Made by a program: the position numbers and the translations under genes. From contig JAQVVM010000014.1 of assembly GCA_028698995.1 (NCBI GenBank), positions 14,735-78,734 of the forward strand: DNA of 64,000 bases, read 5' to 3'. Positions within the stretch are counted from its first letter, which is position 1, and each line of letters begins with the position of its first letter. Source of the DNA: Bacteroidales bacterium (GTDB taxonomy: Bacteria > Bacteroidota > Bacteroidia > Bacteroidales > PXBB01). Positions 20,918 to 59,843 of this stretch are shown piece by piece. The notes beneath the pieces are model-generated. The model saw nothing but the letters and a program-made list of their open reading frames with translations, ran no database searches and was not told the DNA's origin.

Positions 20918-20962
20918 GTATTTTATATTAAATTATTATATAAATTAAATACTACTTAACAT

Positions 20963-22093: not shown

Positions 22094-22128
22094 TATAACA
22101 ATTTATTTGTATTTAGATTTCGATTTTA

Positions 22129-22172
22129 AGCATTTTCAAAATTTTAAAAACCAAATTCAGCTTGAAAATGCT
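22129..22172. other. perfect 11-bp inverted repeat between gmd and fcl
   Basis: AGCATTTTCAA (22129-22139) pairs with TTGAAAATGCT (22162-22172), with a 22-nt loop. No T-run follows on either strand. Confidence 0.5.
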
Positions 22173-22291
22173 GAAACAAAAACCAGTTTATTATCAATGA
22201 TTCTCAAAAAATATTGCATAAATCATATCGAAGTTTTTGTTTTAAAAACAATTGTTCAATTTATGAAACTCCTGTTAGATAATTCGGTTAA

Positions 22292-23338: not shown

Positions 23339-23412
23339 TTGGTAAATTTATATTAATTAAAAAGATTTAGGACTCGAAAAAATGATTTTCTAAGGATTTA
23401 ATAAATGATCCC

Positions 23413-24402: not shown

Positions 24403-24545
24403 TTTATCGAAATAATAATTAGGTAGTTAAAAATTGGAGTGTTTTTTTTGTAGAAAATAATTTTAAAATCTGCACAGCTTCGCCTTGTCAACTACATGTT
24501 TATTATTCTAAACATTTAATTAACAAGACGTTAACAATAAATAAA

Positions 24546-25040
24546 TTAGTTAAGATTCAGACTCTGAAAATCAACTAAAACAATTTTATTCAGGGATTCA
24601 ATTTCAATGGCAATATTTTTCTTCCCTCTGATTTCAACCAGCCTTCCGGATAACCCTTTAAAAGGACCCAATTTAATATTAATCAGTTTGCCACAATCCC
24701 TTATATTTTCCAATGTATTAATTGTAACATAATTGTTAAGCATTATCGATTGCCTGATGCCTTCAATAATTTCAGATCGAACAATGGCAGGCTTTCCCTC
24801 GTGATAAATGTACCTTACAATACCTTTACAATTTAGGACATTATTGTATTCTTTTTCATCTATATTCACAAAAAGGTATCCCGGGAAAAAAGGTTTTTCA
24901 ACCCATTTCTTTCTGTCAACCCATTGTACAAGTTCTTTGTTGAGAGGAAGAAAAACATCAATTCCATGAGATGCCAGAATTTCACAAGATTTCTTTTCAT
25001 GACGCGGTTTTGTGTAAACTACCAGCCATTGTTTTTTCAT
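24546..25040 (-). CDS. UpxY-family NusG-like transcription antiterminator
   Basis: WLVVYTKPRHEKK...GIDVFLP...QWVDRKK.VEKPFFPGYLFV, followed by a KOW-like C-terminus. It is the first gene of a long co-directional polysaccharide locus, as in Bacteroides capsule loci. Confidence 0.8.
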   Translation of the reverse strand: MKKQWLVVYTKPRHEKKSCEILASHGIDVFLPLNKELVQWVDRKKWVEKPFFPGYLFVNIDEKEYNNVLNCKGIVRYIYHEGKPAIVRSEIIEGIRQSIMLNNYVTINTLENIRDCGKLINIKLGPFKGLSGRLVEIRGKKNIAIEIESLNKIVLVDFQSLNLN

Positions 25041-42991: not shown

Positions 42992-43921
42992 TTAATGGGC
43001 ATCAATTTTTTTTTGTTTTATAAGGTAATGAGGTCGTTTTTTTACTTCAAAAAACATCTTACCTAAATATTCTCCGATAACACCAAGGAAAAGCAGTTGA
43101 ATTCCTCCAATAAAAAGAATACTTAAGATTACTGAGGCCCAGCCTGTAATAGCTTTATCAGTAAAAAAACTAATATACAAAGCATACAATCCATAAAAGA
43201 AAGCAAAAGAAGAAATGATAAAGCCAACCAGAGTGGCAATTCTTAACGGTTTTATTGAAAAAGAAGTAATACCATCAACTGCAAAATTACCCATTCTTTT
43301 ATAAGAATACTTTGACCTTCCTGTTAAACGCCTTTCCGGTGTATAATTCAGGGCATAAGAATTAAAGCCTATCCAACTTATTAGTCCTCTGTAAAAAAGA
43401 TGAAACTCATTAAAATCATTTTTAAGAATATCAGCAATTTTTCTGTCAATTAATCTGAAATCTGCGCCCAAATTTGCATTGGGTGAATCTGAAAGCAGGC
43501 TGAATAATTTATTATATACAAGTGCTGAAAATCTTTTGAAACAGGAAATATTTTTACTGCTGTTTTTAATGGTATAAACAATTTCATATCCGTCTTGCCA
43601 TTTTTGCAACATTTCAAGGATAATTTCGGGTTGGTGTTGAAAATCGGCGTCCATTGTAATTAAACAATCTCCTTTAGCATGGTCAATTCCGGCTTTTAAA
43701 GCATTCTGATGTCCGAAGTTGCGTGACAAAGAAATGTACTTTACATTCATGTCTGATTCAGCCAAAATTTTGATTTCATCCAATGTTCCGTCAGTGCTGC
43801 CGTCATCAATGAAGAGATACTCCTTTTTGTATGGCGTTAGAACTTTATCCAAAGCAGCCTTTAAGGCAATGAGGTTACCGCATTCATTATAACAGGGAAT
43901 TATAACAGATATGAAAACCAT
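42992..43921 (-). CDS. GT2 polyprenyl-phosphate glycosyltransferase (GtrB/ArnC/DPM1-like)
   Basis: VIIPCYNE, IDDGSTDGT, TMDADFQH, plus two C-terminal TM helices (LRIATLVGFIISSFAFFYGLY and WASVILSILFIGGIQLLFLGVIGEY). Confidence 0.75.
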   Translation of the reverse strand: MVFISVIIPCYNECGNLIALKAALDKVLTPYKKEYLFIDDGSTDGTLDEIKILAESDMNVKYISLSRNFGHQNALKAGIDHAKGDCLITMDADFQHQPEIILEMLQKWQDGYEIVYTIKNSSKNISCFKRFSALVYNKLFSLLSDSPNANLGADFRLIDRKIADILKNDFNEFHLFYRGLISWIGFNSYALNYTPERRLTGRSKYSYKRMGNFAVDGITSFSIKPLRIATLVGFIISSFAFFYGLYALYISFFTDKAITGWASVILSILFIGGIQLLFLGVIGEYLGKMFFEVKKRPHYLIKQKKIDAH

Positions 43922-45385: not shown

Positions 45386-46357
45386 CTATTTGAAAGTCTC
45401 ACGAAACCATTTGTAAGTCTCCCTGACACCATCCTCAATCGTTATCTCAGGTTTCCAGTTATATGTTTGCATCATCTTTCCAACATCAGGATATCTGGCT
45501 TTAATATCAGTAAATGGCATAGGACGGAAAGTTATTGTAGGTTTTTTCTTAACGCTTGCATCATCTCTGGCAAGAGTAATAATCATTTTCGCCAGATGAA
45601 GATTCGAAATTGTAGTCCAAGGATCACCCACATTAAAGATTTCGACTTCATCATTAGGTTTTTCAACAAAACACATCACAGCATCAACGAAGTCGCTGAT
45701 ATAGCACCAGCTCCTCAAAGAGCTACCAACGCCGTCAATTACCAAATCTTCTCCTTTTAAAGCCCTGCTGCAAAAGTTACTCACAGCACTTTCACCAACC
45801 TGATGGGGTCCATAAATATTAAATAACCGAATAATCGTTGATTTCCAGCCAAGTTCTTCAGAATAACGATAAATCAGCTGTTCACCAGCCAATTTGCCAA
45901 CAGAATACGACCATCTCTTATCACGCGGAGGTCCTATTCGCAAATAGCTTTCCTCATCAGATCCGATAACTTCAGTTCCAAGAACCTCACTAGAAGACAT
46001 ATCTATTAGGCGATTTATTTTGTTCTTTTTCACAGCTTCTAAAACATAAAAAGTTCCAATAAGATTCACTTGTAAAGTGCGGGAAGGATTAAGATAATAA
46101 TCACTTACACCTGCAATTGCAGCCATATGAATCACCAAATCACATCCTTGCATAGCATCAGTTACATGCTGGGCATCCATAATATCTCCTTTAACAAACT
46201 CAACTTTGGTATTATTAAGAAGGTCGGTGTATTGAATGGCATTACGGTGCAAATTATCAAAAATTTTCACAGAATAGCCTTTTGTTATAAGGCGTTTTAT
46301 TAGATGTGAACCAATAAAACCACAACCTCCGGTAATAAAAATCTTTTGCATGGGCAT
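45386..46357 (-). CDS. UDP-glucuronate decarboxylase-like extended SDR (UXS / ArnA C-terminal domain-like)
   Basis: ITGGCGFIGSHL, SSSEVLG, RWSYSVGK (compare ArnA PRWIYSVSK), RLFNIYGP, VSNFCSRALKGEDLVIDGVGSSLRSWCYISD (compare UXS [31 protein letters not shown]). The start was moved to MPMQKIF (46357); the track's 46417 adds an implausible leader. Confidence 0.55.
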   Translation of the reverse strand: MPMQKIFITGGCGFIGSHLIKRLITKGYSVKIFDNLHRNAIQYTDLLNNTKVEFVKGDIMDAQHVTDAMQGCDLVIHMAAIAGVSDYYLNPSRTLQVNLIGTFYVLEAVKKNKINRLIDMSSSEVLGTEVIGSDEESYLRIGPPRDKRWSYSVGKLAGEQLIYRYSEELGWKSTIIRLFNIYGPHQVGESAVSNFCSRALKGEDLVIDGVGSSLRSWCYISDFVDAVMCFVEKPNDEVEIFNVGDPWTTISNLHLAKMIITLARDDASVKKKPTITFRPMPFTDIKARYPDVGKMMQTYNWKPEITIEDGVRETYKWFRETFK

Positions 46358-46368
46358 TTTTTTCAAAA

Positions 46369-46376
46369 CAAAAATA
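46369..46376 (-). promoter_or_regulatory. candidate -7 box (TATTTTTG)
   Basis: Plus-strand CAAAAATA, 12 nt upstream of the 46357 start. This implies a very short leader. Confidence 0.25.
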
Positions 46377-46484
46377 CAAATAAATGTGTAGCTGTCTGAA
46401 ATAAACTTTATAGGCATTACGATTAATTTTTCTAATTTTACAGACAGAAATCAAAGCATCAATTATAAATCAATTAATTTTTTA

Positions 46485-48452: not shown

Positions 48453-49343
48453 ATGATCATAGCTCAAATATCAGGCGGCTTAGGCAATCAGCTCTTCCAA
48501 TATGCATTGGGCAAACAACTGGCATTAAAACATAACACCCAACTGAAATTAGATATTAACATTTATCAAAACCCGCCACCAGGTGCAACAAAAAGACAAT
48601 TTGAACTTAACAATTTTAACATAGAAGTTGACATCGCTTCGATTGAAGAGATTAAAAAAATTAAACGATTTCATTTAAAAGGTTTGCTTAAATCTATTTA
48701 TTGGCGCACACAATATCTTAAGCCCTATCACAAAAGAGATATTATTAAAGAAAAAACAAATTTGTTTGACAGTAATGTTTTAAAAGCTTCAAATAATATA
48801 TATATTGAAGGATATTGGCAAAGCGAAAAATATTTTAAAAATATTAAAGACAAACTATTAAAAGAGTTTAAACCAAAAAACATAATAAATACCGAAGAGT
48901 ACAAATATCTCAACCAGATAATTTCCAGCAATTCGTGTTCTGTTCATATACGAAGAGGGGACTATATCAGCAACCCCAAACATCACAGCATATATAAAAT
49001 AATCCCTTTTGAATATTATGAGAAATCTATTGATTGTGTAAATGAAAAAGAAAAGAACGTCATGTTTTTTATTTTCTCAGACGATTTAGACTGGGCAAAA
49101 AAAGCTTTTAATAAAATAAATAATATTATTTTTGTTGATATAAACGATGCTTGTAAAAGCATGTATTTAATGAGTTGCTGCAAACATAATATTATTAGCA
49201 ATAGTACTTTCAGTTGGTGGGGGGCATGGCTCAATAATAATCCGGATAAAATAGTTGTAACTCCTCAGGAATGGTTTCAAATAGAATCCAAATTAAAAAC
49301 AGATGATTTGCTGCCTAAAGATTGGGTAAAAAAATTATTTTAG
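48453..49343 (+). CDS. GT11 alpha-1,2-fucosyltransferase
   Basis: GGLGNQLFQYA, HIRRGDY, IISNSTFSWWGAWLN. All three GT11 signature motifs are present. Confidence 0.85.
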   Translation: MIIAQISGGLGNQLFQYALGKQLALKHNTQLKLDINIYQNPPPGATKRQFELNNFNIEVDIASIEEIKKIKRFHLKGLLKSIYWRTQYLKPYHKRDIIKEKTNLFDSNVLKASNNIYIEGYWQSEKYFKNIKDKLLKEFKPKNIINTEEYKYLNQIISSNSCSVHIRRGDYISNPKHHSIYKIIPFEYYEKSIDCVNEKEKNVMFFIFSDDLDWAKKAFNKINNIIFVDINDACKSMYLMSCCKHNIISNSTFSWWGAWLNNNPDKIVVTPQEWFQIESKLKTDDLLPKDWVKKLF

Positions 49344-50512
49344 TGAGATTTTAAAAAAAAATCATGTATTTTATTTACAATCTGATTAATGTCTTCGTTA
49401 CTTAAATCATAATAAAATGGCAATCTCAAAAGACTGTTGCTATAAAAATCGCAATAAGGTAATTGTTTCCCTTTATATTTGTCTTCATAAAAATTCGATT
49501 TATGCAATGACTGGTAATGAAACACTGCCCAAATACCTTGGTTTTTAAGGAAGTTAATAAGTTCCTGTCTTTGCATATCACATTTGCAGATGAAATAAAA
49601 CATGTGGGCATTATTAGTAGCGTATTCGGGTAATACCGGGAGCTTTATGTATTCCTTTTTTTCAAGATTTTTAAGTTTTTCATAATATAGGTTCCAAATA
49701 GTTTTTCTTTTTTGTTGTATAACATCAATTTTTTCTAATTGTGCAAACAAAAATGCAGCTAGCAAATCAGATGGCAAAAAGGATGAGCCTGTATCAACCC
49801 ACCCGTATTTATCCACTTCGCCCCGCCAAAATGCCGCGCGATTGGTTCCTTTTTCCCAAATTATTTCAGCTCTTTTTTTGAAAGTCTCGTGGTTAATTAC
49901 CAGCATGCCACCTTCGCCACATTGAATATTTTTTGTTTCGTGAAAGCTGAAACAAGCTAAATGCCCCATCGAGCCCAGAGGCAATTTTTGCCCAGTTTGA
50001 TTAACATAAAAGCTGTCAATGGCCTGAGCGGCATCCTCTATAAGCCACAGGTTGTATTTTTGTGATAATTCAATAAAATAATCCATGTTACAAGCTACAC
50101 CTGCATAATGTACCACCACAATAGCTTTGGTTCTTTGGGTAATGAGTTTTTCCACTTCAGTCTCATCCATATTGGGCTGGTCTTTACAGCTGTCGGCAAA
50201 AACGATTTTTGCCCCCTGACGGACGAAAGCGAGTGCAGTGCTAACAAAAGTAAATGATGGCATAATAATCTCGTCGTCGGGTTTAATGTTGATCAATATG
50301 GCAGACATTTCAAGTGCATCGGTGCAGGAAGTTGTTAGCAGGCATTTATTAAAACCATAACGCTCTTCAAAAAAAGTGTGACATTTTTTTGTAAAGGCAC
50401 CATTGCCGGATATATGCCCCGAGGAGACAGCATGAATGATGTATTCAGTCTCTTTTCCTGTAAGGTGAGGCTTGTTGAAATTTAATGGGTAAAAAACATT
50501 TTTATGATTCAT
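49340..50512 (-). CDS. wecE: dTDP-4-amino-4,6-dideoxygalactose transaminase (WecE/RffA-like, DegT family)
   Basis: Collinear with E. coli WecE as I recall it: SCTDALEM, IIMPSFTFVSTA, VHYAGVAC, FSFHETKN, EKGTNRAAFWRGEVDKYGWVDTGSS, NAHMFY, AVFHYQSLH, LLRLPFYYDLS. The start was moved to MNHKNVF (50512) to avoid a 26-nt overlap with the upstream gene. Confidence 0.85.
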   Translation of the reverse strand: MNHKNVFYPLNFNKPHLTGKETEYIIHAVSSGHISGNGAFTKKCHTFFEERYGFNKCLLTTSCTDALEMSAILINIKPDDEIIMPSFTFVSTALAFVRQGAKIVFADSCKDQPNMDETEVEKLITQRTKAIVVVHYAGVACNMDYFIELSQKYNLWLIEDAAQAIDSFYVNQTGQKLPLGSMGHLACFSFHETKNIQCGEGGMLVINHETFKKRAEIIWEKGTNRAAFWRGEVDKYGWVDTGSSFLPSDLLAAFLFAQLEKIDVIQQKRKTIWNLYYEKLKNLEKKEYIKLPVLPEYATNNAHMFYFICKCDMQRQELINFLKNQGIWAVFHYQSLHKSNFYEDKYKGKQLPYCDFYSNSLLRLPFYYDLSNEDINQIVNKIHDFFLKSH

Positions 50513-50528
50513 CTGTCTCTTTATAATA

Positions 50529-51362
50529 TTATTGGGTTGTTTTTGATGCGACAATCAAACAACTACTACCAAAAGGAATTTTCTTTTTTCTTTTCACACA
50601 ATTTACCTCCCATAATAATACTTTTTTTAATATTCCTTTTATGAAAAAATTAAAAATATTATGCGTTTTTTGGGATTTATTTAGATTTTTTCTGCGAATT
50701 AATTTTAAAAAACTGGGTATAGTACGTAGTAAAAAAATTGGAATAGGAAGAAAAGAAAAAAAATAGGTAGCATATTCAATATTAAATCCTGATTTTTTAA
50801 GTTCACTTGACAAATTATTTAATGTATATCTTCTAAAATGACCAACAAATACATCTTCAGCCGACCATAAAAAACTATAAGCAGGAACAGTTATAAAAAC
50901 CAGCCCGTTAACTTTCAAATACTTGTTTAAGTTAGTGAGAAATTCTGAATCATTATCTAAATGCTCTATTAAATCAAATAAACCGATATTACTTATAGAC
51001 TCTAATGAAAAACCTGCATTTTCAAATGTAGAACATATTATTTTTTTCACACCTCTTTTAGTTGCATTTCTAACCCCATGCTCACCAGGTTCTACAAGGA
51101 TGACATCAATACCGTGATTTTGTAAATAAACTGACACAAACCCGTTACCTCCACCAATATCAAAAAAAATATTATTGTTCAAATACATCAAAACCAATTC
51201 TTTAATAATATTGTTTCTATGTTTAAACCATAAACTTCTTTCTTCAATACATTTAAATATTTCATTACCGTCTTCAGGATATGAAATATTTTTTGTTTTA
51301 CTGGAATAATAAATTCCATCTTCTTTTTTAATTAAATTTTTTGTAATATTCTCAATATCCAT
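50529..51362 (-). CDS. class I SAM-dependent methyltransferase
   Basis: Motif I FFDIGGGNGFVS, then VEPG, and later DLIEHL...LKVNGLVFITVP. Confidence 0.7.
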   Translation of the reverse strand: MDIENITKNLIKKEDGIYYSSKTKNISYPEDGNEIFKCIEERSLWFKHRNNIIKELVLMYLNNNIFFDIGGGNGFVSVYLQNHGIDVILVEPGEHGVRNATKRGVKKIICSTFENAGFSLESISNIGLFDLIEHLDNDSEFLTNLNKYLKVNGLVFITVPAYSFLWSAEDVFVGHFRRYTLNNLSSELKKSGFNIEYATYFFSFLPIPIFLLRTIPSFLKLIRRKNLNKSQKTHNIFNFFIKGILKKVLLWEVNCVKRKKKIPFGSSCLIVASKTTQ

Positions 51363-51365
51363 ATT

Positions 51366-52064
51366 TCAATGTTTCCAAAAATGATAAATAAATGTTTTTT
51401 TTTGTATTGAATAACTATGTTTTTTATAAAAACTTACAGCTTGTATATTATTTAATTGTGTAACAACTTGCATTTTTGCATATTTGTGCATAAAGGCGAA
51501 TCTTTCGGCATTTTTCATGAGTATTCCGCCTACCCCATATCCCTGAAAATCTTTTAAAACAGCGATTAATCCAATTTGTGCTATATAATTATAGTTTTTT
51601 ACGATTGAAACAAATCCTGCAATTTGTTTCTCTTTACGATATACCAATACCTCTTGGGTAATATTTTTTTTAACACTTTCAAATATCCATTTTTTGTAAA
51701 GTTTTTCAAATTCGTTATTCTTAAAATTTTGGTCTGTTTTAAATCGCGAATACTTACCACTTTCCAAAGCAAGAGATTCAAGTTCAGAATAATCAGCAGA
51801 ATTGAAAATATAGGGTGTACATTCGGGTATGGAATCTGAGAGTTCTTCACAAAGTTTTTTTAAAAATGTAACTTTTATATCATTTAAAGTTAATGACGGG
51901 TCATCGCATTTCAATTCTTCTTCTGAAAAGATATAAACTAGTTGGTACTTTTGGGCATTTTCTTTAAAAGACATTAAATCAAAGTCGGTAGTTTGTTTTA
52001 ATTCCAATTTACCAACAGGGTAACCAAAAAAGTTACTGTCCCAAAAAAGTTTTTCAATCATCAA
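51366..52064 (-). CDS. WecD-like GNAT (dTDP-fucosamine N-acetyltransferase-like)
   Basis: LFWDSNFFG (WecD LTWENAFFG), YSRF, YKKWIFESV, GFVSIV, IGLIAV, VVTQLNNIQAVSFYKK. These parallel E. coli WecD blocks in order. Confidence 0.65.
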   Translation of the reverse strand: MMIEKLFWDSNFFGYPVGKLELKQTTDFDLMSFKENAQKYQLVYIFSEEELKCDDPSLTLNDIKVTFLKKLCEELSDSIPECTPYIFNSADYSELESLALESGKYSRFKTDQNFKNNEFEKLYKKWIFESVKKNITQEVLVYRKEKQIAGFVSIVKNYNYIAQIGLIAVLKDFQGYGVGGILMKNAERFAFMHKYAKMQVVTQLNNIQAVSFYKKHSYSIQKKTFIYHFWKH

Positions 52065-52992
52065 AAGTAGTTTTATCTATAATATATATCGGTCTGTTTT
52101 TCACACCCTCAAAAGTTTTTCCTACATACAATCCCATTAAACCAAGTGTAGCTATTATCACACCCGATAAAAACCATATTGAAACAACCAATGAAGTATA
52201 ACCTAATACTTCAATATCTCCCATCAGCCATAGAATAAAAAAAACAATGGCAAAAACAAACGCAGAAAATGAAACAAGCAATCCAAATTTTACCAATAAC
52301 TTAATTGGTTTATCTGAATTTGCAAGTATTATATCTAATGCCAGTCTCAATAGCTTATTGTAATTATAACCTGAACGTCCTTCTTGTCTATAATTATGAT
52401 CAACATTTATCTTGGCGGTATTAAAACCGACCCATTTTACCATAGTAGGAAAATACCTTATGGGTTCTCTCATCTTATTAATCGCATCAACTACTTTTCT
52501 GTTGTAAATTCCAAAATTTGCCACAGTTTTGTCTAATTCTGTACCAGTTAGATAACTTAATAATCTATGAAAAAAAAATGAAGATAACTTTTTAAAAAAA
52601 GTGTCTTTTCTTTTATTTCTTCTTCCAAGTACAATGTTAAACCCCTCTTGAGCTTTATTATATAACTTAAGTATCTCTTCGGGCTTATCCTGCAAATCAC
52701 AATCCATAACCACTACCCATTCACCTATGCAATAATCTAGACCAGCAGTAATAGCATAATGCTGCCCAAAATTTCTAGACAGTTTTATGCCTTTAACTCT
52801 AGGATCATTTTTGGCAAGTACTTCAATACCCTCCCAAGCATCATCGGGGCTGGCATCGTTAACAAAGATTATTTCATAGTTTTCTGTGATTGGAGTAAGA
52901 GTTTCTTTTAATCTTTGATAAAGCTCAAGCAATGATGTGCTACAGCCATACACAGGTGTAACAACAGAAATATGGCAGCTTTGAGTTTGCAT
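52054..52992 (-). CDS. GT2 polyprenyl-phosphate glycosyltransferase (GtrB/ArnC/DPM1-like)
   Basis: VVTPVYG, VNDASPDD, MDCDLQD, plus two C-terminal TM helices (LLVSFSAFVFAIVFFILWL and LVVSIWFLSGVIIATLGLMGLY). It overlaps the WecD-like gene by 11 nt. Confidence 0.75.
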   Translation of the reverse strand: MQTQSCHISVVTPVYGCSTSLLELYQRLKETLTPITENYEIIFVNDASPDDAWEGIEVLAKNDPRVKGIKLSRNFGQHYAITAGLDYCIGEWVVVMDCDLQDKPEEILKLYNKAQEGFNIVLGRRNKRKDTFFKKLSSFFFHRLLSYLTGTELDKTVANFGIYNRKVVDAINKMREPIRYFPTMVKWVGFNTAKINVDHNYRQEGRSGYNYNKLLRLALDIILANSDKPIKLLVKFGLLVSFSAFVFAIVFFILWLMGDIEVLGYTSLVVSIWFLSGVIIATLGLMGLYVGKTFEGVKNRPIYIIDKTTFDD

Positions 52993-53007
52993 TATATGTT
53001 TTTAAAG

Positions 53008-53015
53008 CAAAAATA
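53008..53015 (-). promoter_or_regulatory. candidate -7 box (TATTTTTG) for the GT2-wecD-MT-wecE unit
   Basis: Plus-strand CAAAAATA, 16 nt upstream of the 52992 start. Confidence 0.3.
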
Positions 53016-53088
53016 CTAAATTTTTAAATAAAAAGTATTGGTTTCTTAAGATATAAATCCAAAACAAAAAGCTTTCAATTATTATTTA

Positions 53089-53096
53089 TATATTTG
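53089..53096 (+). promoter_or_regulatory. candidate -7 box (TATATTTG) for the GT-C-like gene
   Basis: TAnnTTTG 50 nt upstream of the ATG at 53146. It is divergent from the box at 53008-53015. Confidence 0.3.
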
Positions 53097-53145
53097 TTCA
53101 ATATATAGGGTGGTGAGACAATATAATCTATAAAAACAAAAAAAG

Positions 53146-54348
53146 ATGAAATTTTCAAAACTATTTAGAGAGAGAGAGAGCATTATTTTGCTAACCTTTA
53201 TGGTTACATTTTTTATTGCAATGATATATCCAACTTTTATAAGCACCCATGTAATGTATATACCAAATTTTGTAACTGCTTGGGACTTTTTAGGTGTTGA
53301 TTTATATGACGCAATAATTATTGTTAAAAATAAGTCAGGTTCTTATTCTCCTTTATCTGACTATCTATTTTTAGTAATTAGCAAACTCCCACATAAAGTA
53401 ACATATCGCTTATTTTTATTATTTAGTTTATCTTCAATAACTATAATATGTTTTTATTTGTTGCCTCGTATATCAAGCAATTACAGTTTAAATATTTCAT
53501 TAATTTTTTTTATTTTACTTGTTTCATCATACGGTTTTATGTTTGAATTAGAACGCGGACAGTGGAATATTATAACATTTCTTTTTATTTATTTATCATT
53601 GTTATTTTTTAAAAGGAATAACGTTTTTTTTTCAATTCTTTTCATTACAATAGCAATCCAGCTAAAAATTTATCCAGCAATTTTTATAATAATGTTTTAC
53701 AAGTCAAACCTCAGTGTTAAAGAAAATATATTATTCATTCTTAAACTTGGAATAATTAATCTTTTATTGTTATTTTCAAGGGGTTGGAATCATTTTTTAT
53801 GGTATATTAATGAAATCTTTATTTATTCAAATGACCCTTTTTGTTGGGCAGGCAATCATTCAATTTCGTCCTTTGCATCAGAGTTAAGCAAAAAATCTAT
53901 TTACCTACCCTTTTTACCTTATGTTCTATTCATACTATATATTATATGTCTTTCTATAATTTCTTACTTATCATATAAGAAAAGAATGCCTTTTTATAAC
54001 AAGTACATGTTTTTTATGTTAACAATTGGCTCTTTAATCATACCAAGTGTAAGTCACGATTATAAATTACCTGCTTTAGGTATTGCAACTTTATATTTCC
54101 TCTCAAATACTGAGTCAGTTTTTAACATTAAAAAAGGGTTTATATATTTGTTATTATTATTTACCATATTTCTAACATTCTATTCTTATACAAATTATAT
54201 TGGAAGATTTAATTTGTTAATTCTTAAAAATAAATTTTTATTAATATATTTTTCAGGAATTGTAAATACATTTTTATGCTTTGACGAATATTACAATATA
54301 AAAAAAACGAATTATTGCCCTAATGAATTAAGAAACGATGTAAGTTAA
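53146..54348 (+). CDS. polytopic membrane protein, GT-C / GT87 (DUF2029)-like glycosyltransferase candidate
   Basis: About 10-11 TM segments. FELERGQWNIITFLFIYLSL and IQLKIYPAIF resemble the GQ.N and K..P segments of DUF2029/GT87 proteins. A Wzy/ligase-like identity cannot be excluded by eye. Confidence 0.5.
   Translation: MKFSKLFRERESIILLTFMVTFFIAMIYPTFISTHVMYIPNFVTAWDFLGVDLYDAIIIVKNKSGSYSPLSDYLFLVISKLPHKVTYRLFLLFSLSSITIICFYLLPRISSNYSLNISLIFFILLVSSYGFMFELERGQWNIITFLFIYLSLLFFKRNNVFFSILFITIAIQLKIYPAIFIIMFYKSNLSVKENILFILKLGIINLLLLFSRGWNHFLWYINEIFIYSNDPFCWAGNHSISSFASELSKKSIYLPFLPYVLFILYIICLSIISYLSYKKRMPFYNKYMFFMLTIGSLIIPSVSHDYKLPALGIATLYFLSNTESVFNIKKGFIYLLLLFTIFLTFYSYTNYIGRFNLLILKNKFLLIYFSGIVNTFLCFDEYYNIKKTNYCPNELRNDVS
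53167..53180 (+). repeat. (AG)7 dinucleotide repeat in codons 8-12 of the GT-C-like gene
   Basis: AGAGAGAGAGAGAG read directly. It encodes RERES in MKFSKLFRERESII. Confidence 0.9.
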
Positions 54349-54678
54349 AAATTCAATGAGTTTTTTAATAAAATACTATAATTTCCCCTATAGGCACTAT
54401 CTTTTTATTGAGACGCTAGATAAAGAAAATTTACATTCTAAAGAACAAGTAATCAAGATATCTATCTCAAAAAGAATATTTAAAAACAAATTAATTATTT
54501 CATTTAGATTTCAGTAATAGCATTATTATCTCCATTTTGGAAGCAGTAAATTATATCTTATTCATGAGATTAATATTTTTTTTAAAACACAAATTAATAC
54601 AATTATTTAATAAAATGCATTCTTATTATATTGTTTTTTATTGTAAAAAATATTTTTTATTAATTTAAAAAAATGGAG

Positions 54679-54686
54679 TAAGTTTG
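54679..54686 (+). promoter_or_regulatory. candidate -7 box (TAAGTTTG)
   Basis: TAnnTTTG 49 nt upstream of the ATG at 54735, at the end of a 386-bp AT-rich gap. Confidence 0.3.
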
Positions 54687-54734
54687 TCTTAGTTTTTTAA
54701 AGTTTTTAAATTAAATATTGATATTTTATTATTT

Positions 54735-55751
54735 ATGTCTAATCCCTTAGTCACAGTTTTAATGCCCGTTTACAATACCGAAAAGTATATTGCAGAGGCT
54801 ATTGATAGTGTGTTGAATCAAACCTTTAGGGATTTTGAGTTTTTGATTATTGATGATGGTTCAACTGATGATTCGGTAAAAATTATAGAATCATATAATG
54901 ATAAAAGAATTCGTTTGGTTAGAAATGATAAAAACATTAAACTTATTGCAACGCTGAACAAAGGGATTGATTTGGCTTTAGGAAAGTATATTTGCAGAGT
55001 TGACGCTGATGATATTTGCATGCCAACAAGATTAGAAAAACAAGTTCGTTTTATGGAGCATAATCCTGATTTTGTAGCATGCTCATCGGGTGTTGAAATC
55101 TTCTATGAAAATTCTAACAAAAGATTTAATATCCTTTATGAGGAATATACTGACGAAATTAGGATTAAAACCATATATCAGAATCACTTTGTACACCCTT
55201 CATCTTTTATAAGAAAAGAATTCATAATTAATAGAGGACTTCGTTTCAGCTCTGAGTTCATTCACACAGAAGATTATTTCTTTTTCGTTAAACTCTCTGA
55301 ATTAGGCCAATTACATAATATTAAGGAATCTCTGGTTAAAGTTAGAAAACACATGACAAATGTTTCTGTTTTAAACTCTGATATTCAGGACAGAAATTCA
55401 ATAAATGTTATCAAATATCAGTTAAATAGAATTGGTATTTGTCCTGTTGATATTGATTTTGACTTGTATTTCAGGTTTTTTTACAGCAGTTTTGACTTTA
55501 CAACTGATGAAATTGAAAAGATTGAAAACCTTGTTATTGACATTATTAAATCTAATAATGCAAGTGAATACCTACCAACTGAGAAACTTAACACTTTTAT
55601 TTGCGATAAATGGTATCATCTATGTGTTAATTCTACAAGATATGGTTGGTGGGCTTACAAAAGATATAAATACTCCCCTTTAATAAAATATTTAAAAATA
55701 TCAAAGTTTAAAAAATTACGATTCATTATTAAATCACTACTTAAATATTAA
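54735..55751 (+). CDS. GT2 glycosyltransferase, paralogue of 46485-47510
   Basis: VLMPVYNTEKYIAEAIDSVLNQTFRDFEFLIIDDGSTDDS and RVDADDI. The similarity to 46485-47510 extends along the whole length, including the C-terminal KSLLKY. Confidence 0.8.
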   Translation: MSNPLVTVLMPVYNTEKYIAEAIDSVLNQTFRDFEFLIIDDGSTDDSVKIIESYNDKRIRLVRNDKNIKLIATLNKGIDLALGKYICRVDADDICMPTRLEKQVRFMEHNPDFVACSSGVEIFYENSNKRFNILYEEYTDEIRIKTIYQNHFVHPSSFIRKEFIINRGLRFSSEFIHTEDYFFFVKLSELGQLHNIKESLVKVRKHMTNVSVLNSDIQDRNSINVIKYQLNRIGICPVDIDFDLYFRFFYSSFDFTTDEIEKIENLVIDIIKSNNASEYLPTEKLNTFICDKWYHLCVNSTRYGWWAYKRYKYSPLIKYLKISKFKKLRFIIKSLLKY

Positions 55752-55786
55752 TTTTTTATATTACCATCATTTTTTCTGTTCAAAAC

Positions 55787-56767
55787 ATGACATATTACCT
55801 TATACTTTTTCATAAGACAAATTACATTCTCAACAAATTAGCAGAACAGCTTCAAGAGAGAATTTATTTGCATCCCTGTTTAAATTTAAAAAAAAGTAAT
55901 GAACAAATTAGAAACACTTTTAAGGAACAAGTTGTCATAACAGATAAACGATATAAGGGTAATTGGGGTGGATTTGGCATTGTCGAAGCTACAATTGAAG
56001 GCATTAGACAAATTCTCAAAGAACAACCCAATTGCACACATATTTCTTTATTGAGCGGTGTGGATTACCCTATAAAACCCATAAAAGAATACGAGCTTCT
56101 GCTTGCAAATAATCCAGAAAGAAGTTTTATCAAATATTGGGACTTTTATCCTTTTGATTCAATGGAAAGTGACACAACAAATCCATGGCATGAAGGTTCT
56201 ATGGTACAAAAATTAAGAATATCCAGGTATTATTTGAATTTATTTAACACTCGTTACAGCATCCCACCAATTGAAAATCATGGTTATTTTCAGTTCAATT
56301 TTTTTCAAAAGTTTAAGCATTTTATTCGGTTTAATGCAAAAGGTTTCACTAATAAATATTCAGAAGAATTTGTTCAATTTTTTTATAGTTTTATTTTTAA
56401 TTACCCAAGAGAAGCACCCTTAAAAACTATTTACGGAGGAAGTCAATGGTGGTCTATTTGCCGAAAACATGCAGAATATATTATCAATTATCACGACAAT
56501 AATAAAAAAATAATCGACTTTTTCAGATATACAATGTTACCTGATGAAACTTACATACAAACAATTCTTTTGAACAGTGAATATAAAAAAGATGTCATTA
56601 ATAATAATTTAAGACATATTAATTTTGAAGGAAACACCTTTCATCCTCAGATAATTACAACTAATCACCTTCAAGAGCTTAAATGCTCTGATGCATTTTT
56701 TGCCCGAAAGTTTGATGAAAAAACGGACACAAATATTATTGAATTAATTGAAAGAGAATTACTTTAA
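55787..56767 (+). CDS. GT14 (core-2 / I-branching 'Branch' domain) glycosyltransferase
   Basis: YYLILFHK, NWGGFGIVEATIEGI, GGSQWWSICRKH, LPDETYIQTILLNS. This is the typical GT14 motif order. Confidence 0.7.
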   Translation: MTYYLILFHKTNYILNKLAEQLQERIYLHPCLNLKKSNEQIRNTFKEQVVITDKRYKGNWGGFGIVEATIEGIRQILKEQPNCTHISLLSGVDYPIKPIKEYELLLANNPERSFIKYWDFYPFDSMESDTTNPWHEGSMVQKLRISRYYLNLFNTRYSIPPIENHGYFQFNFFQKFKHFIRFNAKGFTNKYSEEFVQFFYSFIFNYPREAPLKTIYGGSQWWSICRKHAEYIINYHDNNKKIIDFFRYTMLPDETYIQTILLNSEYKKDVINNNLRHINFEGNTFHPQIITTNHLQELKCSDAFFARKFDEKTDTNIIELIERELL

Positions 56768-56777
56768 ATTAAGCTAA

Positions 56778-57740
56778 ATGTTAACAGTCAGGAAGGTAAT
56801 TACAGAGGATTTCGACAATGTTATTGAGCTTTTAGAAATGTTCGACAATAAAGATATTGATAGGGAGCAGTGGAAGAGACTTTTTTCACCTGTTTGCACT
56901 AAACTCAATAACACTTTTTTTGGATTTGCATTGGTTCATGAAATCAAAATTGTAGGGTTTATAGCAGCTATTCAAAGCCAACGGGAAATAAACGGAAAAA
57001 TTTACAAATTTTGCAATATCAGCAGCTGGATTGTTCATCCTGCCTACAGAAAGGAAAAGAAAGGTTTTTTGCTTTTACAGGCTTTAATGGAAATGGAAGG
57101 TTTTAATTTTTACGTACTTTCGCCAGTAAAACACACATTTAATTATTACATTAATTACTATGGGTTTAAAGAAAATACATCTAAAGTAAGTACCGTTCCT
57201 GCACTTCCATCAATAAGAGGCATATTTAATAAACCGAATGTTTTAATTAATCATGAAGCAATTAAAAATTATTTAACCGAGACAGAAATAGAGCTTTATA
57301 ATGACCATCAGCTTGACAATATATTTCATATCCTATATTTTTATAAAAATAAACCTATATATTGCATAGTAAAGCCATGCAAATATTCTTCATACGTCTT
57401 GAATAGCTCTTTTATAATTAGGATTTTTACTAAAGGATGGTTTAAAATATTAAAAAAAGATTTCTTTAGTTCAAAAATTTTATTAGGCTTAGTACATTTT
57501 ACCAATAACCCTCTTCTCTTTTCTGAATCTTTAAACACAGTTGCATACACAATTTGTAAAGAAATAAAAATCAAAGGGTTAAGTATAAATGAGAAGTATC
57601 TCATTAAAAAACCATTATTTTTAATAAAAAACCACATTAATTATTCAGGCCTTTACAAAACCGATGAGCTTTCACAAGATGATTTTGATTCCCTATACTC
57701 TGAACTTACGCATATGAATTTAAACCATTTTCAGTTATGA
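56778..57740 (+). CDS. GNAT-like acyltransferase candidate (N-terminal domain) with an uncharacterised C-terminal half
   Basis: The N-terminal ~140 aa have a GNAT-like layout (VRKVITEDFDNVIELL ... IVGFIAA ... WIVHPAYRKEKKGFLLLQALME). This call is weak and made by eye only. Confidence 0.4.
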   Translation: MLTVRKVITEDFDNVIELLEMFDNKDIDREQWKRLFSPVCTKLNNTFFGFALVHEIKIVGFIAAIQSQREINGKIYKFCNISSWIVHPAYRKEKKGFLLLQALMEMEGFNFYVLSPVKHTFNYYINYYGFKENTSKVSTVPALPSIRGIFNKPNVLINHEAIKNYLTETEIELYNDHQLDNIFHILYFYKNKPIYCIVKPCKYSSYVLNSSFIIRIFTKGWFKILKKDFFSSKILLGLVHFTNNPLLFSESLNTVAYTICKEIKIKGLSINEKYLIKKPLFLIKNHINYSGLYKTDELSQDDFDSLYSELTHMNLNHFQL

Positions 57741-58789
57741 GTTTTATTACAGATAAATCGTTGGGTTTTTTTGTAAAAACAAGAGGGTATTTTTCAAAAT
57801 ATTTTTTTGGAGGAAAAGGTCTTGCATTGATGTTTCATCGTGTTAGACCGGAGAAATTAATGTCTGTTTTTGAACAAAACCGTAAATGGGAAATAACACC
57901 TGAACATCTTGAAAATGTCATAAAATTTTTCCAAAAGAAGAATTTTAGTATTATAAGAGCTGATGAAATTTACACTTATTTAAAGTCAGGTAAAAAAGAG
58001 CCTTTTGTTATTTTTACTTTCGATGATGGTTATTTAGATAATATTGAGTATGCTTACCCTGTATTCAGGAAATACAAAGTGCCATTCACAATTTTTATAA
58101 CTACTTCGTATGTTAAAGGCTCTCATTATCCATGGGAATTTTTGATTGAGTATACTCTATTAAATAACAGTAGTTTTTCTTTTAAATATTTAAACAAAGA
58201 ATTTTCATTTAATAATCTGAGCTTAAAAGACCGTTCTCAAGCATTTTCACAGATATACAGCATCATTAAAATCAAAAACAATCCCAAAATGCTTCATGAC
58301 ACACTGTTAAGTATTTTCAACGAACTTCCTAATATAAACTACAAAACAATAAATATAATTGACCCGAATACAATAAAGTCTCTAGCAACTGATGAAATTA
58401 TTAATTTTGATATACATTCTGAAAACCATTATGTATTCTCTCAATTATCAAAGGAGGAACAAGTATCAGACATAAAGAATGCAGGGATTTACTTATTTGA
58501 GCTGACAGGTAAAAATTCAAAAACAATGGCATATCCCTATGGTGGGCCAAAAGACATTAATGCTGATACTATTAAAGCTGTACAGAAAACCAAATTAGAT
58601 TTGTGTTTTACAACTTGGCCTGCGAATATTACTACCGATTTTAACAAATTTTTAATACCGCGCTATACAATTGAGATGAAAACAGATGAGCAGGAACTTA
58701 ATTATTTAATCAACGGGATAAGACACTTTTCATACAATGGGTTTAAGAGGATAAACAATTACAATATCAACCATCATTTAAATGAATAA
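57737..58789 (+). CDS. polysaccharide deacetylase (CE4 / NodB-homology) family protein
   Basis: LMFHRV, the FTFDDGYLDN metal-binding motif, FTIFITT, HSENH, AYPYGG. There is a 4-nt overlap with the upstream gene. Confidence 0.75.
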   Translation: MSFITDKSLGFFVKTRGYFSKYFFGGKGLALMFHRVRPEKLMSVFEQNRKWEITPEHLENVIKFFQKKNFSIIRADEIYTYLKSGKKEPFVIFTFDDGYLDNIEYAYPVFRKYKVPFTIFITTSYVKGSHYPWEFLIEYTLLNNSSFSFKYLNKEFSFNNLSLKDRSQAFSQIYSIIKIKNNPKMLHDTLLSIFNELPNINYKTINIIDPNTIKSLATDEIINFDIHSENHYVFSQLSKEEQVSDIKNAGIYLFELTGKNSKTMAYPYGGPKDINADTIKAVQKTKLDLCFTTWPANITTDFNKFLIPRYTIEMKTDEQELNYLINGIRHFSYNGFKRINNYNINHHLNE

Positions 58790-59822
58790 TTATATAAACA
58801 ATAAACTTATTGCATTCTTTGTAAAAACCAATGGTTTTTTTTCCAGAAAGCTTTTTTCTGGCTTGGGACATATTATCACCTTACATAGAGTTATTCCTGA
58901 ATCTGACTTTTTAATCCCTGAAAACAAAGCACTTGAAATCACACCGGATTTTCTCAAGCATTTGGTCATCTTCTACAGAAATAACAATTATGAATTTGTG
59001 ACTTTGGATACTCTTTACGATGTTTTAACAGGAAAGAAAAAGATAAGTAGAAGGATTGCTGTACTGACATTTGATGATGGATATAAAGATGTTTACACCC
59101 ATGCTTATCCACTTTTAAAAGCTCTTGAGATTCCAATGAACCTATATATTACCACAAGTTTTCCTGATAAAACTGCATTTATGTGGTGGTTTCTAATTGA
59201 GCAGCTTTTAAAAGGAAAAGAATTTATCCGGATTAACATTGATGGTGAAAATAAAAAAATTGCATGTTCAACAAGTCTGGAAAAACAAGAGGCTTTCAAA
59301 CACATAAGAATGTTGATCTTAAATAATTATATCAACTATCAGCAAATACTTAAACAGATTTTCTTAATAAACGATGTTGCATTTATAGATAATACAGAGG
59401 AATTATCATTAACATGGGAACAAATAAAACAAATGAGCACAGACCCCTTAGTCAATATAGCTGCACATACAGTCAACCATCCAATTTTCAACAGAATAAC
59501 AGAAACAGAAATTATTAATGAGGTTATAAGTTCAAAAACGATTATTGAACAACATATTAACAAAAAAGTCTCCCATTTCGCTTACCCTTATGGAGGTAAA
59601 GATGAGGTTGGTATAAGAGAATTTGACATCTTGAAGGAACTTGGTTTTAAAACCTGTTCCACTACACGGTTTTCAAATATCTTTAGTGGGCATCGAAGTC
59701 ACTTGGCATGTTTACCCCGAATACAGGTAGGCATGCACATGGTGGACGAAAAACTTAAAAATCTAGAAATGGGTATCACACAATTCAGCAAAAATAAATT
59801 CAATCGGATTGTAACTTTATAA
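58782..59822 (+). CDS. polysaccharide deacetylase (CE4) family protein, paralogue of 57737-58789
   Basis: ITLHRV, LTFDDGYKDVY, MNLYITT, AAHTVNH, AYPYGG. There is an 8-nt overlap with the upstream gene. Confidence 0.75.
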   Translation: MNNYINNKLIAFFVKTNGFFSRKLFSGLGHIITLHRVIPESDFLIPENKALEITPDFLKHLVIFYRNNNYEFVTLDTLYDVLTGKKKISRRIAVLTFDDGYKDVYTHAYPLLKALEIPMNLYITTSFPDKTAFMWWFLIEQLLKGKEFIRINIDGENKKIACSTSLEKQEAFKHIRMLILNNYINYQQILKQIFLINDVAFIDNTEELSLTWEQIKQMSTDPLVNIAAHTVNHPIFNRITETEIINEVISSKTIIEQHINKKVSHFAYPYGGKDEVGIREFDILKELGFKTCSTTRFSNIFSGHRSHLACLPRIQVGMHMVDEKLKNLEMGITQFSKNKFNRIVTL

Positions 59823-59843
59823 CATTTTTCCAACGACAGCAAA

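Follow-up and report, generated by a model that had tools for sequence, protein, structure and literature searches.

A five-gene module in a Bacteroidales genome probably encodes a three-component-type periplasmic glycosylation pathway. The proposed donor is a dTDP-derived 4-acetamido-4,6-dideoxyhexose, most likely D-Fuc4NAc, which is possibly methylated. The module lies within a 64,000 nucleotide stretch of DNA, here called the window. A first-pass annotation had proposed that a 4-acetamido- or 4-amino-4,6-dideoxyhexose is loaded on a carrier lipid and then transferred on the periplasmic side, and comparative genomics supports this in silico. No published account of the cassette described below was found in the literature. 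The features are as follows:

49340–50554, minus strand: WecE orthologue, PLP-dependent dTDP-4-keto-6-deoxyglucose 4-aminotransferase (NF008687, TIGR02379 and E. coli WecE 4piw matches)
50529–51362, minus strand: SAM-dependent methyltransferase of class I whose C-terminal part includes a hydrophobic segment; accessory to the cassette and optional (Pfam Methyltransf_23/11)
51366–52064, minus strand: WecD-like GNAT N-acetyltransferase (NF008212, Pfam Acetyltransf_1)
52054–52992, minus strand: polyprenyl-phosphate glycosyltransferase (PI-GT), a GtrB/ArnC type GT2 with DxD and C-terminal TM hairpin (Pfam, PgfS and ArnC models, 5ekp, 9hwj)
52993–53145, no strand: divergent intergenic region of 153 bp with TAnnTTTG boxes (motif search)
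53146–54348, plus strand: GT87-family GT-C glycosyltransferase, putative periplasmic transferase (Pfam GT87, AF2 fold)
20036–20917, minus strand: RmlA, glucose-1-phosphate thymidylyltransferase (TIGR01207)

An ORF check of the window finds all five open reading frames of the module at these coordinates. The minus-strand unit from 52992 to 49340 is a tight operon whose neighbouring genes overlap or nearly abut, and it encodes four proteins: the PI-GT, the WecD-like GNAT, the methyltransferase and the WecE orthologue. The GT87 gene is divergent from it. This is the arrangement, with the same families, that the first-pass annotation had described, and the 11-nt overlap of the GT2 and GNAT genes (52054–52064) is also correct, provided that a TTG start is used. 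Homology of WecE begins only at residue 24, and therefore the ATG at 50512 is probably the true start. TAnnTTTG boxes are indeed present on both strands, at 53008–53015 (minus) and 53089–53096 (plus), and are plausibly placed in the divergent region, but the motif is no more frequent than expected by chance in this AT-rich window (107 observed vs. 112 ± 10.5 expected) and the boxes therefore carry no statistical weight. Among the genes flanking the module are seven for soluble GTs, four of GT2 together with GT61, GT11 and GT14.

The GT2 matches Pfam Glycos_transf_2 with 102 bits and aligns over its full length with the PgfS (215 bits) and ArnC (183 bits) models, both scores being below the equivalog cut-offs. 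Residues 5–306 align with the solved structures of GtrB (5ekp, E 3.8e-59) and ArnC (9hwj, E 7e-45). The DxD motif is DCD within MDCDLQD, which lies opposite DADLQD of GtrB in the alignment, and hydrophobic helices are found at residues 238–256 and 268–286. This full-length homology, hairpin included, places the protein in the GtrB/ArnC type, as first proposed, and not among soluble or processive enzymes that lack the hairpin. Homologues of the PI-GT form more than 100 clusters in Bacteroidota at 60–66% identity, and the protein falls in a tight Bacteroidota clade (52–66% identity). Characterized PI-GTs have UDP- or GDP-sugar donors, and we know of none that uses a dTDP-sugar.

The aminotransferase scores above cut-off with NF008687 (541 bits, cut-off 375) and TIGR02379 (492 bits, cut-off 435), and has 373 bits to E. 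coli WecE (4piw), with the next family, QdtB, at 150. The GNAT aligns over its full length with the WecD model NF008212 (104 bits, E 8.5e-30), although below the cut-off of 219; it matches Pfam Acetyltransf_1 and, weakly, E. coli WecD (2fs5), and the GNAT of a Salegentibacter cassette scores equally on NF008212. Both calls of the first-pass annotation hold at these levels. The methyltransferase (Pfam Methyltransf_23/11) has a hydrophobic stretch at approximately residues 201–222, and homologues are found beside the cassette in related loci L130, where gene order is identical, L143, L149, L152, L153 and L167. The RmlA gene (TIGR01207, 450 bits, cut-off 360) is 29 kb from the module without rmlBCD, and its product is the likely supplier of dTDP-glucose. 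Model searches found no canonical RmlB encoded within the window.

The divergent gene encodes a polytopic protein that matches Pfam GT87 (42.8 bits, cut-off 25). Its AF2 model is confident (pLDDT 86.7, pTM 0.89), and the 14 best PDB fold matches are all GT-C or GT-C-like: PIG-M, PIG-U, PimE, ALG12/6/9, PglB, ArnT and EmbC. None of the 14 is a Wzy or ligase (WaaL), and the model has a PimE-like GT-C fold. PimE, the mycobacterial polyprenyl-phosphate-mannose-dependent mannosyltransferase, is the sole meaningful match of the GT87 clade profile. It shares Pfam family and GT-C fold with the window protein (TM-scores 0.59 normalized to the query and 0.63 to the target). In the profile alignment the clade motifs YPP, ERGQ and QLK stand opposite PimE Y92, Q163 and K195, and an invariant first-loop Asp, D52, resembles PimE D58. 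The two differ in that identity is only about 13%, the expected donor here is not mannose nor the acceptor PIM, and the host is a Gram-negative Bacteroidales bacterium.

In the proposed pathway, dTDP-4-keto-6-deoxyglucose would be made with RmlA from the window and a 4,6-dehydratase necessarily encoded elsewhere. The WecE orthologue would aminate C4, the WecD-like GNAT would acetylate the amine, and the methyltransferase may add a methyl group. The GtrB/ArnC-type GT2 would then use the dTDP-sugar to charge undecaprenyl phosphate at the cytoplasmic face; we infer both this donor specificity and the stereochemistry at C4. A flippase outside the gene set of the window would turn the lipid-linked sugar over, a step for which some relatives have an ArnF-like protein, and the GT87 enzyme would pass the sugar to an acceptor glycan, most likely one of the cell surface, at the periplasmic face. 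The window itself has no gene for GtrA, for ArnE/F or for any other small multi-TM protein. Inversion of the anomeric configuration is the rule for GT2 and for every known GT-C enzyme, and the side residue is therefore expected to be alpha-linked.

The module is not an isolated case. We examined 84 loci of the PI-GT clade (52–66% identity) and counted the 52 whose downstream flank reaches 2.3 kb or more; the 80 metagenome loci include near-duplicates, and the counts are therefore non-independent. An N-acyltransferase directly follows the PI-GT in 44 of the 52 (33 GNAT, 11 formyltransferase), a WecE orthologue lies within 2.8 kb in 43, and both accompany the PI-GT in 36. The PI-GT, N-acyltransferase and WecE form a recurrent Bacteroidota cassette, and other genomes share the pathway; recurrence in relatives had been posed as a check by the first-pass annotation. 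A protein with at least seven TM helices is found near the cassette in 35 of 44 loci, typically starting right after WecE. These polytopic partners are extremely diverse in sequence (65 proteins in 29 clusters), and GT87 is never among them in the sampled Bacteroidota cassettes. True RmlB–RmlA and an ArnF-like small membrane protein are encoded upstream in Salegentibacter and Gillisia; across the related loci, RmlB–RmlA precedes the cassette in some and the ArnF-like protein does so in others. The best NCBIfam match of the latter is full length, at 45 bits. The setting is usually a Wzx/Wzy or GT-rich polysaccharide locus. Locus L104 has two complete tandem cassettes, a duplicated five-gene unit, each with its own polytopic protein.

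Cytophagales loci and one bacterium of unspecified phylum do have GT87 together with PI-GT and WecE, and the co-occurrence of the GT-C with GT2 and wecE is thereby borne out. In Cytophagales loci L022 and L033 a string of WecE, a PglD-like acetyltransferase and PI-GT is divergent from GT87. Pfam GT families match no other intervening or flanking ORF scanned there, the outermost ORFs read as housekeeping-like (SmpB-like, ApbC-like), and no alternative user of the aminosugar lies close by. GT87 relatives adjoin WecE-linked PI-GTs in these loci and in L005/L006. Other GT87 relatives adjoin PI-GTs and genes of CDP-3,6-dideoxyhexose, 3-amino-3,6-dideoxyhexose or 2,3-dehydratase pathways, and L072 and L084 have FdtA- or WxcM-like genes beside PI-GT and GT87. 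PI-GT subclades follow the type of sugar pathway encoded next to them, e.g. L001 and L039 are 56% identical mutually and about 30% to others. We infer the GT2–GT87 pairing here from the 153-bp divergent adjacency and by analogy with L005/L006, L022/L033 and L077.

The GT87 might instead be served by a second PI-GT of the window (42992–43921) or by a donor made elsewhere, with the WecE-linked PI-GT feeding a GT-C outside the window. There are two PI-GTs and one GT-C candidate in the window, GT87-linked PI-GTs elsewhere are about equally distant from both (roughly 30% identity), and the sampled cassettes of this PI-GT clade lack GT87 partners. We nevertheless consider this highly improbable: the GT87 gene is 153 bp from the WecE-linked PI-GT vs. 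9.2 kb from the other, whose orthologues are surrounded by housekeeping genes and lack GT-C or sugar genes in their vicinity, and GT87 relatives adjoin WecE-linked PI-GTs in the four loci just named (L005/L006, L022/L033). It is also unlikely that two unrelated functions merely lie side by side, i.e. that the dTDP-Fuc4NAc from WecE, WecD and the methyltransferase goes to a cytoplasmic Leloir GT of the surrounding locus, and that the PI-GT and GT87 handle a common sugar, e.g. UDP-Glc or UDP-GlcNAc. The donors of characterized PI-GTs speak for it, as do the seven flanking genes, since dTDP-Fuc4NAc is a conceivable direct donor for any of these soluble GT2, GT61, GT11 or GT14 enzymes. Cytoplasmic GTs do use this nucleotide sugar in ECA and O-antigens (PMC7685785). 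However, the order of PI-GT, acyltransferase and WecE is kept in the majority of the 52 related loci irrespective of which GTs surround it, the module stands isolated in L022/L033, and the five-gene unit is duplicated in L104. The window ORFs that were scanned with Pfam include no WecF (GT56), a check for which had been suggested, and neither do the genes called in about 3.9 kb of Logan contig past the window end.

An Arn-like charge modification, whereby the Und-P aminosugar is de-N-acylated by a downstream CE4 enzyme, flipped and put on lipid A or core with resulting cationic peptide resistance, appears very unlikely. It has one-to-one parallels in its favour (ArnB/WecE, ArnA formyltransferase domain/formyl variant in 11 of 52 loci, ArnC/PI-GT, ArnE/F/ArnF-like, ArnT/GT-C), and three CE4 domains do lie 3–10 kb downstream as first noted, at 57737–59822 and in a GT1–CE4 fusion ORF starting at 62441. 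But homologues of these CE4 genes occur in 0 of about 165 related loci, and the proposed de-N-acylase role is not supported; neither complete CE4 protein matches the ArnD model or has a predicted TM segment. The usual polysaccharide-locus setting also argues against it, and such diverse polytopic partners would be expected if the acceptors are glycans of many kinds, not a conserved lipid A. Lipid A as acceptor is without support.

The periplasmic glycosylation favoured here most resembles known systems in parts. Gtr three-component O-antigen glycosylation comprises GtrA/GtrB/GtrC of Shigella and Salmonella, Klebsiella gmlABC and a Citrobacter pentofuranose system (PMC11127046). Shared with it are a conserved GT2 PI-GT with C-terminal TM hairpin (full-length to GtrB 5ekp) and a highly variable GT-C, genes in or next to polysaccharide loci, and conserved sugar-charging genes with an acceptor-specific transferase. 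The proposed donor comes from in-cassette genes and is a dTDP-derived 4-acylamido-4,6-dideoxyhexose, in contrast to UDP-Glc, UDP-Gal or PRPP; the transferase is a GT87, and there is no GtrA and no flippase candidate in the window, an ArnF-like protein being found in some relatives. The Arn pathway (ArnB, ArnA, ArnC, ArnD, ArnE/F, ArnT), which puts L-Ara4N on lipid A, has the same succession of aminotransferase, N-acylation (formyl in a subset of relatives), PI-GT (E 7e-45 to ArnC structures), small DMT-type flippase (ArnF-like in relatives) and GT-C. It differs in using a UDP-pentose and not a dTDP-6-deoxyhexose scaffold; no ArnD-type deformylase is linked here, the aminotransferase is a WecE orthologue and not ArnB (213 bits, with the cut-off at 631), ArnT/GT83 is replaced by GT87 or by another of the diverse polytopic proteins, and the genomic setting points to polysaccharide acceptors.

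The Fuc3NAc side-branch system of Xanthomonas is a genetic near-precedent (wxc region 3: WxcK, WxcM, WxcN). WxcN is presumably GtrA-like, and we take a GtrB-like gene to belong to the wxc region. In X. campestris, the D-Fuc3NAc side branches need the WxcK aminotransferase and the small membrane protein WxcN, and mutation of wxcK or wxcN abolishes FucNAc branching of the rhamnan O-antigen; no Und-P-linked intermediate is reported in that work (PMC4878081). Xanthomonas adds a dTDP-derived acetamido-dideoxyhexose as a side branch, as proposed here, but its sugar is the isomer with a 3-amino group and arises through a 3,4-ketoisomerase as opposed to the 4-amino WecE/WecD route, and the phylum is different. 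The Fuc4NAc branch of ECA in Enterobacterales (WecE/WecD/WecF) has in common with the module a WecE above the NCBIfam equivalog cut-off and a WecD-like two-domain GNAT, whereas here the cytoplasmic transferase WecF is not found and the sugar genes share an operon with the PI-GT.

The proposed glycosylation module lies where the first-pass annotation had placed it: four minus-strand genes run from 52992 to 49340, and a gene for a polytopic membrane protein lies on the opposite strand. The minus-strand genes overlap or nearly abut one another, and the first two share an 11-nt overlap, given a TTG start.

Genes of the module
52992 to 49340, minus strand, first gene: GT2 of the polyprenyl-phosphate glycosyltransferase type (PI-GT), 312 aa; Pfam Glycos_transf_2, 102 bits
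same unit, second gene: WecD-like GNAT, 232 aa; WecD model NF008212 matched end to end at 104 bits (E 8.5e-30), short of the cut-off of 219
same unit, third gene: class I SAM methyltransferase, 277 aa; Methyltransf_23/11
same unit, last gene: WecE orthologue; NF008687, 541 bits, above the equivalog cut-off of 375
53146–54348, plus strand, divergent from the PI-GT across 153 bp: polytopic GT87 protein, 400 aa; Pfam GT87, 42.8 bits against a threshold of 25

The PI-GT has a GT-A domain with a DxD motif, full-length homology and a C-terminal transmembrane (TM) hairpin, and belongs to the GT2 proteins of the GtrB/ArnC/DPM1 type. Over residues 5–306 it can be aligned with two solved structures, Synechocystis GtrB (5ekp, E 3.8e-59) and ArnC (9hwj, E 7e-45). 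The DCD of the PI-GT is aligned with the DAD of GtrB, and hydropathy peaks at 238–256 and 268–286, which form the hairpin, are aligned with the GtrB TM region. Against NCBIfam models it scores 215 bits for PgfS and 183 bits for ArnC, both over the full length and both below the equivalog cut-offs. The protein is predicted to transfer a sugar from a nucleotide-sugar to undecaprenyl phosphate (Und-P).

The strongest result is the conservation of the PI-GT neighbourhood. More than 100 homologous clusters of this protein, at 60–66% identity, are found across Bacteroidota, and 84 loci of the PI-GT clade were compared. With the proviso that some loci are near-duplicates and the counts overstate independence, an acyltransferase is encoded directly 3′ of the PI-GT in 44 of the 52 loci that have at least 2.3 kb downstream (33 GNAT, 11 formyltransferase), a WecE orthologue of at least 350 bits is within 2.8 kb in 43 of 52, and both partners are present in 36 of 52; a protein with at least seven TM helices is encoded within 6 kb in 35 of 44, typically starting right after WecE; an ArnF-like gene is directly upstream in 9–11 of 66; and RmlA and RmlB are found in 13 and 9 of 45 loci, respectively. 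The combination of PI-GT, acyltransferase and WecE recurs in relatives; the annotation had proposed a test of such co-occurrence.

The gene order of this cassette in Salegentibacter agarivorans is RmlB (TIGR01181, 459 bits against 365), RmlA, a 120-aa EamA protein whose best NCBIfam match is ArnF (45 bits, full length), PI-GT, WecD-like GNAT, WecE (568 bits) and two polytopic proteins, the first of 407 aa (PMT_2, 26.4 bits, and weak GT87) and the second of 631 aa. Gillisia mitskevichiae has a formyltransferase in the GNAT position, and a Salinivirgaceae MAG carries the GNAT form of the cassette adjoining a Wzy-like gene and GT genes. Homologues of the window methyltransferase are in or next to the cassette at several related loci (L130, with the same gene order, L143, L149, L152, L153 and L167).

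The polytopic partners are highly diverse, with 65 proteins falling into 29 clusters. The GT87-clade profile has no significant match among these 65, and therefore the partners represent other, mostly unclassified families. By analogy, the pattern resembles that of a conserved GtrA and GtrB with a variable GtrC. On one metagenome contig (L104:130-11656), RmlB-RmlA is followed by the cassette in two complete copies, in tandem. Each copy has an ArnF-like protein, PI-GT, acyltransferase, WecE and a polytopic protein, the last differing between the two. This arrangement shows that the five cassette genes move and duplicate as a unit.

With the E. coli WecE structure 4piw the aminotransferase scores 373 bits, compared with 150 for the next aminotransferase family, QdtB, and it reaches 213 bits on the ArnB model against a cut-off of 631. 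Because it is orthologous to E. coli WecE, a galacto configuration of the donor sugar (Fuc4N) is suggested. The GNAT matches the E. coli WecD structure 2fs5 weakly, with only 28 bits, and no formyltransferase is encoded in the window. Upstream steps are partly represented: a genuine RmlA (20036–20917, minus strand; TIGR01207, 450 bits against 360) is found beside Gmd and Fcl in a UpxY-led locus, without an accompanying rmlB, rmlC or rmlD, and a search across the window for a canonical RmlB (dTDP-glucose 4,6-dehydratase) found none. The SDR protein at 45386–46417 (minus strand) has TIGR01181 as its best model, yet its 159 bits are far short of the cut-off of 365. Where 4,6-dehydratases have an S-T-D-E motif, this protein has SSSEV, which resembles the motif of UXS (UDP-xylose synthase) and the ArnA decarboxylase, and it is probably not RmlB.

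The best 14 Foldseek matches in the PDB of an AlphaFold (AF2) model of the GT87 protein (pLDDT 86.7, pTM 0.89; 24-sequence alignment) are all GT-C or GT-C-like, and no Wzy or O-antigen ligase (WaaL) is among them. Matches include PIG-M, PIG-U, PimE, ALG12/6/9, PglB, ArnT and EmbC; TM-scores with PimE (9dm7) are 0.59 and 0.63. Judged by its modelled fold, the membrane protein at 53146–54348 is a GT-C enzyme, and the original assignment holds. A PDB search with the single GT87 sequence gave no match, and PimE was reached only through the clade profile, of which it is the sole meaningful PDB match (E 0.021). In this alignment the YPP, ERGQ and QLK motifs conserved in the GT87 clade correspond to PimE Y92, Q163 and K195, with Q139 and K174 of the window protein opposite Q163 and K195. 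All three PimE residues are needed for activity, and the catalytic D58 is in the first loop (PMC12041525). D52 of the GT87 protein is in the first loop and is invariant in 24 clade members; the sequence alignment stops short of PimE D58, and D52 is a putative counterpart by its loop position.

The TAnnTTTG boxes described for the divergent region are indeed present on both strands, at 53008–53015 (minus) and 53089–53096 (plus), but the motif shows no enrichment in this 30% GC window, where 107 copies were found against 112 ± 10.5 expected by chance.

The GT87 protein is rare, and its closest relatives are 39–41% identical when near-identical copies are set aside. Two of the related loci (L001:6248-11191 and L039:452-11191) have CDP-3,6-dideoxyhexose-like genes, which encode a DegT protein of RfbH length and a reductase with weak FAD/NAD-binding matches, followed by PI-GT, GtrA and GT87. 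Their PI-GTs share 56% identity, against about 30% with others; the gene content suggests that sugars of the abequose, tyvelose or paratose type are added by way of a lipid carrier. At L002 a 2,3-dehydratase, ketoreductase, DegT protein and methyltransferase precede PI-GT and GT87, and L072 and L084 have DegT, PI-GT and GT87 with genes that, from reading their sequences, seem to be of the FdtA/WxcM type. The order at L005 and L006 is GT87, ATP-grasp, PI-GT, GNAT and WecE (444 bits). In the Cytophagales loci L022 and L033, WecE (about 490 bits), a PglD-like acetyltransferase, PI-GT, HAD, ATP-grasp and SDR genes are on the minus strand and GT87 is transcribed divergently from this string, which is the layout of the window. 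No Pfam glycosyltransferase family was found in the other intervening and flanking ORFs scanned at these two loci, and the outermost ORFs, judged by reading their sequences, seem to encode SmpB-like and ApbC-like proteins. WecD, WecE and GT87 are consecutive at L077, from a gammaproteobacterial MAG. Taken together, these neighbourhoods tie the GT87 clade again and again to a PI-GT and a 6-deoxysugar pathway. The link is missing from most GT87 loci of the more distant Chloroflexota relatives.

The window contains two glycan loci, A (about 5.8–25 kb, minus strand) and B (43–64 kb), and the module is part of the latter. Around it, locus B encodes four soluble GT2s, GT61, GT11, GT14/Branch, GNATs, CE4 proteins and a second PI-GT.

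Glycan genes surrounding the module
5854–25040, minus strand: locus A, with a NusG/UpxY-like first gene, Gmd, Fcl, RmlA, Wzx-like, Wzy-like polytopic, LicD and GT4
42992–43921, minus strand: second PI-GT, GtrB-type, 309 aa, with TM hairpin; PgfS model, 258 bits
54735–61034, plus strand: operon with GT2, GT14/Branch, GNAT-like, two paralogous CE4 proteins and a 396-aa GNAT-like protein
62441 to beyond 64000, plus strand: GT1-CE4 fusion, following this operon

Locus A also encodes a cytidylyltransferase, a HIT protein, a LegB-like dehydratase with a nucleotidyltransferase, a UDP-GlcNAc 2-epimerase and two DUF354 proteins. The 386 bp that separate GT87 from the operon downstream (54349–54734) are non-coding and very AT-rich, and include a TAAGTTTG box at 54679–54686. 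The CE4/GT1-CE4 gene set (54735 onward, plus strand) was seen solely in the same organism. The roughly 3.9 kb that follow the window end contain the remainder of GT1-CE4, genes for a radical SAM protein and a GNAT, and one unassigned gene.

Two of these neighbours might be considered as parts of the pathway. A de-N-acylation step by the CE4 proteins had been suggested, and their genes are 3–10 kb downstream of the module. They form a separate co-directional operon beyond the 386-bp gap, and the two CE4 proteins of the 54735–61034 operon have no TM segment predicted from hydropathy. The analogy with known de-N-acylases is unsupported, because none of about 165 related loci carries homologues of the window CE4 proteins, and neither complete CE4 protein matches the ArnD model. 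The GNAT and Branch genes downstream of the module have no homologues in these loci either. The second PI-GT, 34% identical to that of the module, could in principle serve GT87. Its orthologues (50–67% identity, in many Bacteroidota) are solitary genes in housekeeping surroundings, where neither GT-C nor sugar-pathway genes are nearby, and therefore it is unlikely to be the GT87 partner.

The most economical reading is a three-part route of dTDP-sugar synthesis, Und-P loading and GT-C transfer. The cassette enzymes would make a dTDP-4-acylamido-4,6-dideoxyhexose, and the PI-GT would transfer this sugar to Und-P. The Und-P-linked sugar would then be flipped to the periplasmic face, where a GT-C enzyme would attach it to a glycan. 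In the window the GT-C role would be filled by GT87, recruited instead of the usual cassette partner types. An alpha-linked residue is predicted, since the route has two inverting steps. As the relatives sit among Wzx/Wzy and GT genes and the polytopic partners are diverse, the acceptor is more probably O-antigen, capsule or some other glycan than lipid A, and locus A might be its source.

We lean towards a more general proposal, which we hold to be somewhat probable: that the widespread Bacteroidota cassette (RmlB-RmlA)-(ArnF-like flippase)-PI-GT-(WecD-like GNAT or formyltransferase)-WecE-variable GT-C represents a PI-GT class with a dTDP-4-acylamido-4,6-dideoxyhexose donor, which decorates O-antigen, capsule or glycoprotein glycans after export with alpha-Fuc4NAc or Fuc4NFo side residues, and that one GT87 clade outside Actinobacteria is dedicated to 6-deoxy/dideoxy sugars from lipid-phosphate donors.

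By analogy, the module may be viewed as a post-polymerisation side-branch glycosylation system, and would operate in the manner of the three-component systems of the Gtr type (for a review, see PMC11127046). The GT-C transferase is encoded with the PI-GT, 153 bp apart. The window has no small flippase of the GtrA or ArnE/F type: no GtrA or EamA homologue, no ArnE/F-like protein and no ORF of 80–200 aa with at least three TM helices was found in it. The cassette parallels the Arn pathway step by step, although the module is not an Arn system: it has no ArnB, ArnA, ArnD or ArnT orthologues, and its transferase is GT87, not PMT_2/ArnT. With the dTDP-Fuc4NAc branch of enterobacterial common antigen it shares the WecE equivalog, but it would not count as such a branch: WecF (Glyco_transf_56, GT56) is absent from the subset of window ORFs scanned with Pfam, and also from the precomputed Pfam matches of the genes in the approximately 3.9 kb past the window end.

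The Xanthomonas side-branch sugar is the 3-acetamido isomer, and WxcN is GtrA-like. The nearest precedent is genetic: in Xanthomonas, FucNAc side branches are lost when either wxcK, for an aminotransferase, or wxcN, for a small membrane protein, is mutated (PMC4878081). A full-text literature search of incomplete coverage found no description of a WecE-fed (dTDP-4-amino-sugar) pathway with Und-P, a PI-GT and a GT-C enzyme.

Three-component periplasmic glycosylation is experimentally known for Glc, Gal, GlcNAc, Man, Ara4N, GalN, GlcN and pentofuranoses. To our knowledge, the donors in all these systems are UDP-sugars, GDP-sugars or PRPP. If the proposal is true, dTDP-derived aminodeoxyhexoses would join this list, and the PI-GT clade would be the first with a dTDP-sugar donor. 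It would explain possible Fuc4NAc-type side branches in Bacteroidota without a WecF-type enzyme, and glycoengineering would gain a compact unit of five genes that is portable. Many polytopic proteins without a family would acquire a function that can be tested, as would several hundred GT2 genes that carry no label beyond ‘family 2 glycosyltransferase’ or ‘dolichol-phosphate mannosyltransferase’. Since Salegentibacter and Gillisia are carriers that can be cultivated, the proposal is directly testable.

It should also be pointed out that the window has a 1753-aa ORF at 30674–35935 (plus strand), and that a Reg_prop-repeat protein with a T9SS C-terminal sorting domain is encoded inside the glycan locus, at 61067–62335 (minus strand).
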